Assembly (NCBI RefSeq): GCF_003334255.1
Contig: NZ_QOWU01000015.1
Reading direction: 5' to 3' (one strand)
DNA length: 64,000 bases
From: Escherichia coli
GTDB taxonomy: Bacteria; Pseudomonadota; Gammaproteobacteria; Enterobacterales; Enterobacteriaceae
Shown here: one piece after another, positions 10,745 through 13,219 of the stretch
Layout of the letters: every line of letters starts with the position of its first letter
Numbering within the stretch: position 1 is the stretch's first letter
Made by a program: the position numbers and the translations under genes
Notes under the pieces: generated by a model
Databases searched by the model: none
Told to the model about the DNA's origin: nothing
Seen by the model: only the letters and a program-made list of their open reading frames with translations

Positions 10745-10779
10745 TTTGCGCCCCGAACGTTGAATGAATTGTGGTTCTT

Positions 10780-11556
10780 ATGTCCGAAACAAAAAACGAA
10801 CTTGAAGACCTGCTGGAAAAAGCAGCAACTGAACCGGCGCACCGCCCGGCCTTTTTCCGTACTCTACTGGAATCCACCGTCTGGGTGCCTGGTACGGCGG
10901 CGCAGGGCGAGGCTGTGGTTGAAGATAGCGCGCTTGATTTACAGCACTGGGAAAAAGAAGACGGCACCAGCGTCATTCCTTTTTTCACCTCGTTAGAAGC
11001 ACTTCAACAGGCGGTTGAAGACGAACAGGCATTTGTCGTAATGCCCGTTCGCACGCTGTTTGAGATGACACTTGGCGAAACGCTCTTCCTTAATGCCAAA
11101 CTGCCAACCGGTAAAGAATTTATGTCGCGTGAAATCAGTTTGTTGATTGGTGAAGAGGGAAATCCGCTGAGCAGCCAGGAAATCCTGGAAGGCGGTGAAT
11201 CGCTGATATTATCGGAAGTCGCAGAGCCGCCAGCACAAATGATTGATTCACTCACCACCTTATTTAAAACCATTAAGCCGGTGAAGCGTGCTTTTATTTG
11301 TTCAATTAAAGAGAACGAAGAGGCACAGCCTAATTTACTTATTGGCATTGAAGCCGATGGTGATATCGAAGAAATTATTCAGGCGACGGGAAGTGTAGCG
11401 ACCGATACATTACCTGGCGATGAACCAATCGATATTTGTCAGGTGAAAAAAGGGGAAAAAGGAATTAGCCACTTTATTACCGAACATATTGCGCCATTCT
11501 ATGAACGTCGCTGGGGTGGTTTTTTGCGTGACTTTAAACAGAATCGGATAATCTAA
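10780..11556 (+). CDS. sseB: SseB (enhanced serine sensitivity protein)
   Basis: 258 aa from ATG 10780 (MSETKNELEDLL). Confidence 0.9.
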   Translation: MSETKNELEDLLEKAATEPAHRPAFFRTLLESTVWVPGTAAQGEAVVEDSALDLQHWEKEDGTSVIPFFTSLEALQQAVEDEQAFVVMPVRTLFEMTLGETLFLNAKLPTGKEFMSREISLLIGEEGNPLSSQEILEGGESLILSEVAEPPAQMIDSLTTLFKTIKPVKRAFICSIKENEEAQPNLLIGIEADGDIEEIIQATGSVATDTLPGDEPIDICQVKKGEKGISHFITEHIAPFYERRWGGFLRDFKQNRII

Positions 11557-11559
11557 AAT

Positions 11560-11580
11560 ATGCCGCCCAAAGGGCGGCAT
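11560..11580. terminator. Stem-loop after sseB; also the candidate 3' end of the minus-strand ryfA-like transcript
   Basis: atgccgccc-aaa-gggcggcat is a perfect 9-bp stem. On the minus strand it is followed by atatttta; the U-tract is weak. Confidence 0.5.
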
Positions 11581-11736
11581 TCGGGCTTACTTGCTGCTCT
11601 GAAGGTTGTTAACCACCAGTAAATTGTCGCCGGAGAGACTCCGGTTATTATTTACCTCGGTTAACAGCGCACCAGAAACAATAAGTACGATACAAAAGCA
11701 CCGTATCTTCATTGTGCGGTCCATGCGAAGACCGCA

Positions 11737-11811
11737 TCACGACAGCACCACTGGCGATATTGCCGCGATAGCAAGCGCTGTGAAACACCTGCATTTACGG
11801 CCACGGAACAT
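11737..11811 (-). CDS. Candidate 24-aa small hydrophobic protein (MFRGRKCRCFTALAIAAISPVVLS), TimP/type-I-toxin-like
   Basis: ATG at 11809-11811 with SD aggaaagg 2 nt upstream; basic N-terminus followed by a 14-residue hydrophobic stretch; an upstream anti-SD (ccctttcc) can pair with the SD. Below the 60-aa cutoff of the ORF track. Confidence 0.3.
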   Translation of the reverse strand: MFRGRKCRCFTALAIAAISPVVLS

Positions 11812-11900
11812 CCTTTCCTAAAGCCAGCGCCCGTTTGCGAGACGGCGGAAAGGGCCGCAGTGGATAATACACTAACAGAACAATAATAACTCTCTTTTGC

Positions 11901-11929
11901 TTGACAAAAAGAGAGTTACTGGCGAGTAT
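11901..11929 (+). promoter_or_regulatory. Sigma70-like promoter inside a palindrome (copy 1)
   Basis: Consensus -35 TTGACA at 11901-11906, 17-nt spacer, -10 GAGTAT at 11924-11929. The -35 sits in the loop of the palindrome ctctcttttg/caaaaagagag and overlaps the minus-strand TTGTCA. Confidence 0.45.
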
Positions 11930-11935
11930 TGTCTC

Positions 11936-12032
11936 CGCTGAGACGCGCTTGCATTACTACGGTAATACAACCTGCTGGAAAGGCCGCGAACCGGACCAGC
12001 AACAAAAAACCGCCTGATTTTGGCGGTTTTTT
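11936..12032 (+). ncRNA. Candidate ~100-nt sRNA (TimR-like), copy 1
   Basis: Runs from the predicted TSS to an intrinsic terminator (ccgcc-tgatttt-ggcgg + T6, 12009-12032). Contains ggaaaggccgc, complementary (with one bulge) to the 5' UTR of the minus-strand small-ORF transcript. Confidence 0.4.
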
Positions 12033-12222
12033 GTTTTTTAAAGGAAAGTGAATTTACATGTTTAAGTAATATCTTTTACCGGTTAGAATTTTTAATTTTG
12101 AGCAGGATTTGTTTATATTTGTCTGAATTCAGACTAATAAGCCAGGTTATTTTATTACCGAACACGGCGGAAAGGGCCGGTGTCGATAATACGCTAAATA
12201 AACAATAATTACTCTCTTTTGC

Positions 12223-12251
12223 TTGACAAAAAGAGAGTTACTGGTGAGTAT
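12223..12251 (+). promoter_or_regulatory. Sigma70-like promoter, copy 2
   Basis: Identical TTGACA (12223-12228), 17-nt spacer and GAGTAT (12246-12251), in the same palindrome context as copy 1. Confidence 0.4.
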
Positions 12252-12257
12252 TGTTTT

Positions 12258-12357
12258 GCTGTGAAGCACCTGCGTTGCTCATGTAACACAAGTCAACCTG
12301 CTGGAAAGGCCGCGAACCAGACTAGCAATAAAAAACCGCCAAATTCGGCGGTTTTTT
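12258..12357 (+). ncRNA. Candidate ~100-nt sRNA, copy 2 (sibling of 11936-12032)
   Basis: Same promoter; diverged 5' half; conserved 3' block cctgctggaaaggccgcgaacc; terminator stem ccgcc/ggcgg preserved although the loop differs (aaattc vs tgatttt). Confidence 0.4.
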
Positions 12358-12373
12358 ATTGCCTGTAAAATAC

Positions 12374-13219
12374 TTATTTCACTGGCTCAACCGGTAAATC
12401 TGCCCGCGCGCCCCATTCACTCCATGCGCCGTCGTACAGTTTCACGTTTGGCACATCCAGCGTCGCGAGTGCTAACAAAACCACGGCTGCCGTTACACCA
12501 GAGCCGCAGCTGACGATAATTGGTTTGTCGTAGCTGACGCCGCGACCAAAAAATATCGCATCCAGTTCATCGGTCGTTTTTAGTTCGCCTTCGCGCACCA
12601 GTTCCGTCCACGGAACATTCAGTGCTCCGGGAATATGTCCGCGACGTAAACCTGGGCGAGGTTCATCAACTTCTGCGTTAAAACGTGCAGCCGGGCGGGC
12701 ATCAATAATTTGCGCCGTATTTTCATGGCTTGCCAATAATACATCGGTTACTTTCACCACGGCTTCAGGATTAAACGCGGCGTTAAACTCTCCTTCCGGC
12801 AGCTCTACTGCACCTTCTTCTAACAGCAGATCATCGCGCTGCCAGCCTGCAAGTCCACCCCCCAGAATCGACACTTTCTCTACACCAAAGGTGCGCAGCA
12901 TCCACCATGCTCGTGGGGCTGAGAAAAGATTACCTTCGTCATAGACAATCAGGTGCTTATCCTGGTTAACGCCTAATTCACGCATCGCCACGGCGAACGT
13001 TTCCGGGCGCGGCAGCATGTGCGGAAGCGGGGAAGTGTGATCAGAAAGCGCTTCGATATCAAAAAACACTGCGCCGGGAATATGTCCATTCAGATACTCC
13101 TGAGCAACGTTACGATCCTCCTGTCCAGGCGACGCCATGCGGGCATCGATAATCTGAATTTCCGGGTCATCAATATGTTCGGCGAGCCAGTCGGCTCCTA
13201 CAAACCATGTCGTGGACAT
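12374..13219 (-). CDS. sseA: SseA 3-mercaptopyruvate sulfurtransferase
   Basis: 281 aa from ATG 13217-13219 (MSTTWFVGADW); rhodanese active-site CGSGVTA. The track ORF extends 53 codons upstream of the real start. Confidence 0.93.
   Translation of the reverse strand: MSTTWFVGADWLAEHIDDPEIQIIDARMASPGQEDRNVAQEYLNGHIPGAVFFDIEALSDHTSPLPHMLPRPETFAVAMRELGVNQDKHLIVYDEGNLFSAPRAWWMLRTFGVEKVSILGGGLAGWQRDDLLLEEGAVELPEGEFNAAFNPEAVVKVTDVLLASHENTAQIIDARPAARFNAEVDEPRPGLRRGHIPGALNVPWTELVREGELKTTDELDAIFFGRGVSYDKPIIVSCGSGVTAAVVLLALATLDVPNVKLYDGAWSEWGARADLPVEPVK

Follow-up and report, generated by a model that had tools for sequence, protein, structure and literature searches.

TimR-A, a TimR-family antitoxin sRNA candidate of Escherichia coli next to a timP allele with a non-matching binding site

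The stretch of DNA analyzed in this study (hereafter the window) comprises 64,000 nucleotides (nt) of Escherichia coli (NCBI RefSeq assembly GCF_003334255.1, contig NZ_QOWU01000015.1) and shows only 2 mismatches to K-12 MG1655 over positions 11400 to 12500. The locus in question carries the genes pepB, sseB, ryfA/timP, and sseA. An earlier reading by a model that saw the letters and their open reading frames (ORFs) (the sequence-only reading) had described a small ORF at this place, whose sequence identifies it as TimP, the toxin of the type I toxin-antitoxin system timPR. It had also predicted a terminated, TimR-like small RNA (sRNA) on the plus strand, divergent from the mRNA of the small ORF, at 11936 to 12032. 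This prediction proved essentially exact, with a 5' end within 1 nt of the sequenced one (11935), and the divergent arrangement as well as the family are supported by a covariance model, by the Salmonella promoter, and by the sequenced K-12 RNA ECS011. Sequence and predicted structure place the plus-strand RNA at 11935 to 12032 (~98 nt) in the TimR family of type I antitoxin sRNAs, as a paralog of TimR (also known as RyfB or STnc2070), and we named it TimR-A. A tandem second copy at 12257 to 12357, annotated as timR and here called TimR-B, had been overlooked.

The assignment of TimR-A to the TimR family follows from three independent lines, namely, a covariance-model match, a match to the Salmonella promoter, and a transcript in K-12. 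The covariance model was derived from 9 TimR homologs outside Escherichia (Salmonella, Citrobacter, Superficieibacter, Rahnella, Yersinia, and Erwinia), including the characterized Salmonella TimR, and matched the plus strand at 11935 to 12033 over its full length (model positions 1 to 98; 99.6 bits, E ~2e-20). Copy B reached 81.5 bits at 12256 to 12358 with the same model, and the only remaining match in 64 kb was a weak antisense one on the terminator of copy B. TimR-A is furthermore collinear with, and placed like, the single divergent sRNA of Yersinia, Rahnella, Erwinia, Citrobacter, Superficieibacter, and E. whittamii. A search of the plus strand at 11935 to 12032 against Rfam 15, whose library holds no TimR model, returned no family above its gathering score; the sub-threshold matches were to the rimP leader (35.4 bits; gathering score, 47) and the rnk leader (25.5 bits; gathering score, 55). 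For homologs, a contig scan with the pattern GCGGTCNNNGCANNGACCGCAC was too loose, in that most of the at least 120 loci were GC-rich hairpins of unrelated phyla, and it left at least 14 usable Enterobacterales loci. No Salmonella was among the matches listed, and the Salmonella TimR and its promoter were therefore rebuilt from published oligonucleotides (Table S2 of Andresen 2020, PMC7667032).

The rebuilt Salmonella TimR promoter reads TTGACA-17 nt-GAGTAT-TAATC, followed by +1, and has the same -35 hexamer, spacing, and -10 hexamer as TimR-A, which places the +1 of TimR-A at 11935. The elements named by the sequence-only reading (TTGACA at 11901 to 11906 on the plus strand, TTGTCA at 11907 to 11902 on the minus strand, a 17-nt spacer, and GAGTAT at 11924 to 11929) were all found in place. 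All units, from those of Escherichia to those of Yersinia and Erwinia, keep a TTGAC -35 element and, at the 17-nt spacing, a -10 element whose second base is A and whose sixth is T.

Expression of this RNA in K-12 is documented by published data. The 71-nt contig of ECS011 (CCGCUGAGACGCGCUUGCAUUACUACGG...CCAGCAACAA; K-12 v2 coordinates 2651730 to 2651800) is identical to window positions 11935 to 12005, and the 5' end of TimR-A at 11935 corresponds to 2653778 on the minus strand of K-12 v3. ECS011 (Shinhara 2011, PMC3175480) was equated in that study with IS129 of Chen 2002, and no function was given. A strand-specific 35-mer against the unique 5' part of ECS011, and thus an A-specific probe, detected Northern bands of ~95 and ~100 nt in K-12 (PMC3175480). 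RefSeq annotates no feature for TimR-A in K-12 or in the three records listed by the A-type search, and the literature search returned no names of the RIL-seq type for the intergenic region. The features of the locus are compiled in Table 1.

Table 1. Features at the timPR locus of the window (strand left empty for elements without orientation).
Feature	Coordinates	Strand	Evidence
TimR-A sRNA (= IS129/ECS011): 5' seed, hairpin 1, invariant hairpin 2, terminator	11935-12032	+	Covariance model; ECS011 contig; Northern bands; fold
TimR-A -35, TTGACA	11901-11906	+	TTGAC invariant in all 14 aligned units; identical to Salmonella TimR promoter (oligo EHO-1349)
TimR-A -10, GAGTAT, 17-nt spacer	11924-11929	+	Hexamer and spacing as in Salmonella; A at position 2 and T at position 6 conserved
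TimR-A 5' seed CGCUGAGACGCGCUUGC, putative specificity determinant	11936-11952	+	17/17 Watson-Crick pairs with CGCGT-type timP SL2 of other E. coli strains
Hairpin 1 (AUUAC-UACG-GUAAU)	11953-11966	+	Consensus fold; AU<->GC compensatory changes in 5 sequences
Hairpin 2, GCUGG-AAAGGCCGCGAACCGGA-CCAGC, holding GGAAAGGCCGC (11977-11987)	11973-12001	+	Invariant columns in 14-sequence alignment
Bidirectional intrinsic terminator, 14-nt perfect arms (12001-14, 12022-35), 7-nt loop, then T run; common to IS128 remnant	12001-12035		Inverted repeat; fold; covarying stem
TimR-B sRNA (= K-12 timR b4811)	12257-12357	+	Coordinate mapping; covariance model, 81.5 bits; 19-bp seed duplex with G.U, 0/2000 shuffles as good
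ryfA/timP mRNA, toxin transcript	11555-11858	-	Rfam RF00126, 314.9 bits; K-12 annotation
timP coding sequence, 41-amino-acid toxic inner membrane protein	11587-11712	-	NCBIfam NF040796, 86.8 bits (cutoff 45); RefSeq
Predicted TimR binding site, SL2 of timP 5'UTR (mRNA nt 58-83), variable region TGTTT	11776-11801	-	Best local duplex for both sRNA copies; corresponds to Salmonella SL2/G76 protection site
Conserved timP -10, TATTAT	11864-11869	-	Aligned -10-like hexamers across genera; Salmonella oligo EHO-1348
Perfect palindrome, 12-nt arms (11887-11898, 11907-11918), 8-nt center GCTTGACA, untranscribed between two start sites	11887-11918		Inverted repeat; rare versus shuffles; Escherichia-specific
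Second copy of palindrome and -35, 10-nt arms	12211-12238		Direct repeat D1; inverted repeats I3/I4
IS128: B-unit promoter output, ~20-nt timP 5' stub plus array spacer, ending at the TimR-A bidirectional terminator	11990-12198	-	Rfam RF00125, 260.3 bits; filler homology
sseB	10771-11556	+	RefSeq/K-12 annotation
sseA	13378-12374	-	RefSeq/K-12 annotation

In a family alignment of 14 sequences, covering six genera plus E. coli variants, the consensus runs from a single-stranded, fast-evolving 5' seed of ~17 nt through hairpins 1 and 2 to the terminator. In contrast to the fast-changing seed, hairpin 2 (GCUGG-AAAGGCCGCnAACCnGA-CCAGC) is the same in all genera from Escherichia to Yersinia and Erwinia, and it could be held constant by a bound protein or by a further contact with RNA. 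The whole TimR-A RNA folds at -33.1 kcal/mol (z = -3.4), and the strong terminator expected about 100 nt downstream of the promoter is present, with perfect arms of 14 nt and a T run.

Unrestricted RNAduplex runs with the whole RNAs gave long, loop-ridden duplexes that were no better than those of shuffles (z ~ -1.5), and local and accessibility-corrected analyses were used instead. For both sRNA copies, the best compact duplex lies at nt ~58 to 83 of the timP mRNA (window 11801 to 11776), which is stem-loop 2 (SL2) of the 5' untranslated region (5'UTR). Shuffles equaled the seed duplex with timP in 1 of 2000 cases for TimR-A and in 0 of 2000 for TimR-B. The complementarity is specific for the allele of timP. 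Together with timP of the CGCGT type, TimR-A forms a seed duplex of -37.0 kcal/mol with 17 Watson-Crick base pairs (bp) and a net energy after opening costs of -17.7 kcal/mol, and TimR-B forms one of -19.5 kcal/mol with a net energy of +10.5 kcal/mol. The TGTTT allele, which is the one in the window, gives -35.9 kcal/mol with TimR-B (19 bp including G.U; net, -19.1 kcal/mol) and -25.1 kcal/mol with TimR-A (net, -11.0 kcal/mol), the longest helix of the latter having 6 Watson-Crick pairs, or 11 counting G.U. The seed duplex of the D-type sRNA with timP of the CACCC type amounts to -33 to -34 kcal/mol.

TimR-B begins ~320 bases beyond TimR-A, from which it differs in its seed and in 5 nt inserted after hairpin 1. 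The two units stem from a tandem duplication, in which repeat D1 (11842 to 11932 versus 12164 to 12254) is 90% identical and repeat D2 (11968 to 12031 versus 12294 to 12357) is 84% identical. Informative sites from 11568 to 11834, in the timP body and SL2, are of the B type save one A-type site at 11603, while those from 11858 to 11980, in the promoters, the palindrome, and the sRNA body, are of the A type; a lone B-type site follows in the terminator at 12009. A recombination junction thus lies at the start of the timP transcript, within ~24 invariant nt (11834 to 11858), at the left edge of D1 (322-nt tandem repeat, 11842/12164). Judged by these sites, unit 1 is a recombinant in which the toxin gene is of the B type (TGTTT) and the promoter and sRNA are of the A type. 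As a consequence, the toxin gene stands beside a non-cognate antitoxin, with the cognate TimR-B one unit further. We could not derive a path by which one recombination step would turn a tandem array into the K-12 arrangement, and it is the junction alone that is established. The annotated sRNA IS128, which starts from the promoter of the B unit, reads as a toxin-less remnant and as no independent sRNA gene.

Four alleles of the SL2 variable region of timP (TGTTT, CGCGT, CACCC, and CCCCC) have been described (Fris 2017, PMC5333039), and E. coli timP alleles that differ in this region each have a matching sRNA seed. Strain GF4-3 carries three complete units, and the adjacent sRNA was the best partner in both units whose SL2 was scored. 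CFT073 has an intact single cognate B unit, and EC11 has a single A unit. Allele counts by megablast over 5426 complete E. coli genomes, all of them lower bounds, amounted to at least 4545 genomes for the 5' part of the A-type sRNA, at least 1626 for that of the B-type sRNA, at least 1972 for the TGTTT-type SL2, and at least 1805 for the CGCGT-type SL2. The timPR locus was found to be highly plastic in the strains GF4-3, EC1, EC11, Ch1, and CFT073, which have between one and three units. In the additional units, a fragment of the 3' end of sseB is included, and EC1 harbors a fourth sRNA type, which is without hairpin 1.

Taken together, timP in this genome is most probably repressed mainly by TimR-B, and TimR-A is a TimR paralog that most likely acts here as a weaker, cross-reacting or spare antitoxin; we put the probability of this reading as a whole at roughly 0.85. 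TimR-A may be a backup repressor or a functional orphan. In Salmonella, TimR uses its 5' end to pair with the timP 5'UTR at a site over 60 nt upstream of the ribosome-binding site (RBS), and it represses translation directly, as shown by compensatory mutations and by cell-free translation (PMC7667032). The site there comprises the loop and the 5' side of SL2, with G76 protected, and binding destabilizes the SL1-SL3 pseudoknot essential for translation initiation (PMC11228461, PMC13000454). Since the best duplex of both copies in the window lies at SL2 and is hardly ever equaled by shuffles, we infer the same mechanism for E. coli. TimR-A is made from a sigma-70 promoter (TTGACA-17 nt-GAGTAT, +1 at 11935), divergent from timP/ryfA, and ends at the intrinsic terminator at 12032. 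If TimR-A acts like its Salmonella homolog, the single-stranded 5' seed of TimR-A would pair with SL2, which lies more than 60 nt upstream of the RBS, and this pairing would destabilize the SL1-SL3 pseudoknot needed for 30S loading, so that TimP translation would be blocked. The relative contributions of TimR-A and TimR-B in vivo are likewise inferred.

Several points weigh against this reading. TimP repression and rescue from toxicity have been shown for Salmonella TimR only (PMC7667032). The TimR-A seed departs from a perfect partner of the timP in the window at 5 of 20 positions, 3 of which become G.U. The hexamer GAGTAT is a poor match to the consensus (3/6 positions), for which reason the TimR-A promoter was not listed by a simple promoter scan. 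In Shigella dysenteriae, overexpression of RyfB1 lowered the cognate RyfA1 and not RyfA2 (PMC5333039), and this discrimination between siblings suggests that seed differences can insulate pairs. Furthermore, a timR deletion was without phenotype in a published study of avian pathogenic E. coli (APEC), and this study as well as earlier work on uropathogenic E. coli (UPEC) question whether TimP is made in E. coli. Loss of ryfA was harmful in APEC only with timR present, which hints at additional TimR activities.

A different site of contact had been proposed by the sequence-only reading, according to which GGAAAGGCCGC in the sRNA body pairs with the 5'UTR of the divergent mRNA. TimR-A would then be the dedicated antitoxin of the adjacent timP, acting through internal pairing of GGAAAGGCCGC with the extreme mRNA 5' end (GCGGCCCUUUCC). 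The complementarity itself exists, as GGAAAGGCCGC matches GCGGCCCTTTCC (11858 to 11847, minus strand), the first 12 nt of the timP RNA, over 11 bp with one bulge (-19 to -22 kcal/mol). Both segments are near-invariant across genera, so that the pairing potential is kept everywhere, and published probing resolves the first mRNA nucleotides poorly, which leaves room for a 5'-end contact. Yet 136 of 2000 shuffles and 4.3% of the genomic windows of 34 nt equal this duplex, and with opening costs included it nets -6.1 kcal/mol, as against -11 to -19 kcal/mol at the seed sites. Moreover, within the sRNA GGAAAGGCCGC lies buried in hairpin 2, and its mRNA counterpart forms the 5' arm of SL1. The near-invariance of both segments makes a covariation test uninformative; no compensatory changes were seen, and in Rahnella a position at the mRNA 5' end changes to A without a matching change in the sRNA. 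Published mutational and probing data put the interaction at the seed and SL2 (PMC7667032, PMC13000454/PMC11228461). A contact of GGAAAGGCCGC with the timP mRNA 5' end is therefore unlikely, and we regard a dedicated antitoxin acting in this way as improbable. Between the two RNAs, a favorable duplex is predicted for the seed and SL2, the site of the family, though a weaker one for TimR-A than for TimR-B (-11.0 kcal/mol net for TimR-A, better than 1999 of 2000 shuffles); the GGAAAGGCCGC site stays at chance level. ECS011 has also been listed as antisense to IS128 (Table 2 of PMC3175480), and following this 2011 classification TimR-A would be a cis-antisense regulator of IS128. Its 3' 43 nt are indeed perfectly complementary to the IS128 3' end (overlap, 11990 to 12032; duplex, -79.6 kcal/mol), and the two share the bidirectional terminator. 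This overlap, however, is the terminator and nothing more. IS128 was undetectable in Northern blots with strand-specific probes (PMC3175480) and, as a toxin-less stub with array spacer, is missing from most phylogroups, whereas the A-type sRNA is found in at least 4545 of 5426 genomes, and we consider regulation of IS128 very improbable. A small protein encoded by the transcript has hardly any probability. Plus-strand ORFs of 38 or 40 amino acids were found at 11901 to 12017 and 11929 to 12051, and an internal ORF starting with TTG would be another candidate. Both plus-strand ORFs begin upstream of the mapped 5' end at 11935, though, and there is no ATG or GTG inside the RNA. Homologs carry frame-breaking indels (5 nt in copy B and the D type, 1 nt in Salmonella), and the conservation pattern of TimR is that of helices with compensatory changes.

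The palindrome TCTCTTTTGCTTGACAAAAAGAGAG at 11891 to 11915, also reported by the sequence-only reading, is present and in fact extends further on both sides, to 12-nt arms around GCTTGACA. It lies between the start sites of timP and TimR-A, which are divergent and 78 nt apart. A dimeric regulator on the arms would cover the TimR -35 element and spacer together with the timP -35 region and could co-regulate or switch the divergent promoters in Escherichia. The palindrome is untranscribed and centered on the TimR -35 element, and its left arm covers the expected position of the timP -35 element. In the 64 kb, 6 places have a perfect inverted repeat whose arms are 12 nt long and whose spacer is at most 10 nt, at least 2 of them being sRNA terminators, compared with 0 to 2 per block-shuffled window. 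Both units retain the palindrome, as do CFT073 and EC1 with one mismatch. On the other hand, its arms occur only in A- and B-type units of E. coli and, in part, in E. whittamii. The D-type units of E. coli and the other genera aligned all lack them, although the promoters are conserved there. The two copies in the window go back to one duplication and provide no independent evidence, and the palindrome matched no recognized binding motif. An operator is thus a tentative and rather unlikely interpretation of this sequence. The earlier proposal of overlapping divergent -35 hexamers with mutually exclusive transcription was not supported. The minus-strand promoter needed for it, TTGTCA-16-TATTGT, was listed by the simple promoter scan, but it is not conserved, its start would fall at ~11873, about 15 nt upstream of the known timP 5' end, and it clashes with the conserved timP -10 element (11869 to 11864) and +1. 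The Salmonella timP transcript starts at GGCCCUUUCC, corresponding to window position 11856, downstream of the same TATTAT, and K-12 annotates 11858; other genera have TATGAT, TACAAT, or TAAAAT at the position aligned to this -10 element. With a +1 at 11856 to 11858, the timP -35 element is expected at ~11887 to 11892. It should therefore adjoin the TimR -35 element, under the left arm of the palindrome, and the two -35 elements would be adjacent and not overlapping.

Several of these elements can also be joined in one scenario. Recombination in the first ~24 nt of timP would have uncoupled the toxin from its cognate antitoxin in K-12-type E. coli, and TimR-A would be an orphan kept for a new role, which could be that of a graded backup repressor of a non-cognate toxin via G.U-rich pairing or lie with other mRNAs in trans. 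The palindrome would be an operator coordinating the divergent promoters, and hairpin 2 could contact the timP 5' end. If true, this scenario, which we consider doubtful, could explain the dependence of the ryfA phenotype on timR in APEC.

The reading of TimR-A as a weaker or spare TimR paralog can be compared with known systems. TimR of Salmonella Typhimurium (STnc2070; Andresen 2020, with follow-up studies in PNAS 2024 and NAR 2026) likewise lies divergent next to timP, is made from a TTGACA-17-GAGTAT promoter, and has the same length, a collinear structure, and a seed that targets SL2, as predicted for TimR-A. The TimR-A seed differs from that of Salmonella TimR because the seed co-evolves with SL2. 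In contrast to Salmonella, the adjacent timP of the window has a non-matching SL2 allele, and a second paralog gives the good match. With K-12 timR b4811 (copy B), TimR-A shares the family, the palindrome, the promoter, a 3' module that is 84 to 90% identical, and the predicted target site in timP. It differs in lacking the 5-nt insertion after hairpin 1, in having another seed with a patchy match versus the 19 bp of B, and in annotation, which exists for B and not for A. The RyfB1/RyfB2 and RyfA1/RyfA2 genes of Shigella dysenteriae (Fris 2017) form tandem units of a toxin mRNA and a divergent sRNA of ~100 nt at the same locus; their specificity resides in the 5-nt SL2 variable region, with the four alleles named above, and the siblings discriminate between targets. 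Two complete units are present in Shigella, whereas in the window only a stub is left of the second toxin gene and the other lies beside a non-cognate sRNA.

An antisense sRNA that acts in trans and is adjacent to, without overlapping, a gene for a small membrane toxin is also known from tisB/istR-1, shoB/ohsC, zorO/orzO, and dinQ/agrB, and in the multicopy Ibs/Sib sets paralog-specific pairing with seed-defined specificity insulates the copies. TimR-A has no sequence homology to these type I systems, just sub-threshold Rfam matches driven by the terminator. Unlike them, TimR disrupts a pseudoknot and does so far upstream of the RBS, on an mRNA (timP) that requires no processing.

The timPR (ryfA/ryfB) system, its mechanism, the sibling layout in Shigella, the variable-region alleles, and the IS129/ECS011 transcript are already published. 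IS129 (Chen 2002) and ECS011 (Shinhara 2011) are the same RNA as TimR-A, with exact agreement in sequence, strand, and coordinates, and have been catalogued as an sRNA without assigned function, antisense to IS128. In the searchable literature, we found neither an assignment of ECS011/IS129 to the TimR family, and with it a link to TimR/timP, nor the mosaic non-cognate arrangement in K-12-type strains. By position and sequence, TimR-A appears to have a better claim than the annotated b4811 to being the ortholog of Salmonella TimR, a relation likewise not found in searchable papers. A long-catalogued orphan sRNA of K-12 thereby becomes assignable to the TimR family. In K-12-type strains, deletion of "the sRNA adjacent to ryfA" or of timR (b4811) alone removes one of two potential repressors. 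Furthermore, the SL2 variable regions and their matching seeds (types A, B, and D) constitute a natural specificity set for discrimination among paralogous toxins.

Some minor observations were made at the locus. The AT-rich palindrome was considered as a minus-strand terminator and rejected, as it has 3 GC pairs, a poor T tail, and no upstream transcript. The spacer of the Salmonella TimR promoter (oligo EHO-1349, PMC7667032 Table S2) holds a different inverted repeat, CTCCCTT-AA-AAGGGAG, whose arms resemble those of the E. coli palindrome at a different position. The K-12 genes designated RyfB/RyfC were also rejected as part of the locus, since they are shoB/ohsC. Sub-threshold Rfam matches to AgrB (29.6 bits), ohsC (28.8 bits), and OrzO-P (25.8 bits) at 12279 to 12360 (plus strand) and 12003 to 12076 (minus strand) are most likely driven by the terminator hairpins. 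The array-derived sRNA C0614 (K-12 v2 2651474 to 2651560) maps to 12175 to 12261 on the plus strand, which covers the second palindrome and the TimR-B promoter and not the RNA, and is probably a mis-bounded TimR-B signal. Finally, the mechanical timP ORF has 45 amino acids from the ATG at 11724 (11587 to 11724, minus strand), compared with 41 amino acids from the ATG at 11712 for TimP in RefSeq and NCBIfam, and the 45-amino-acid version is the one used in the UPEC literature.

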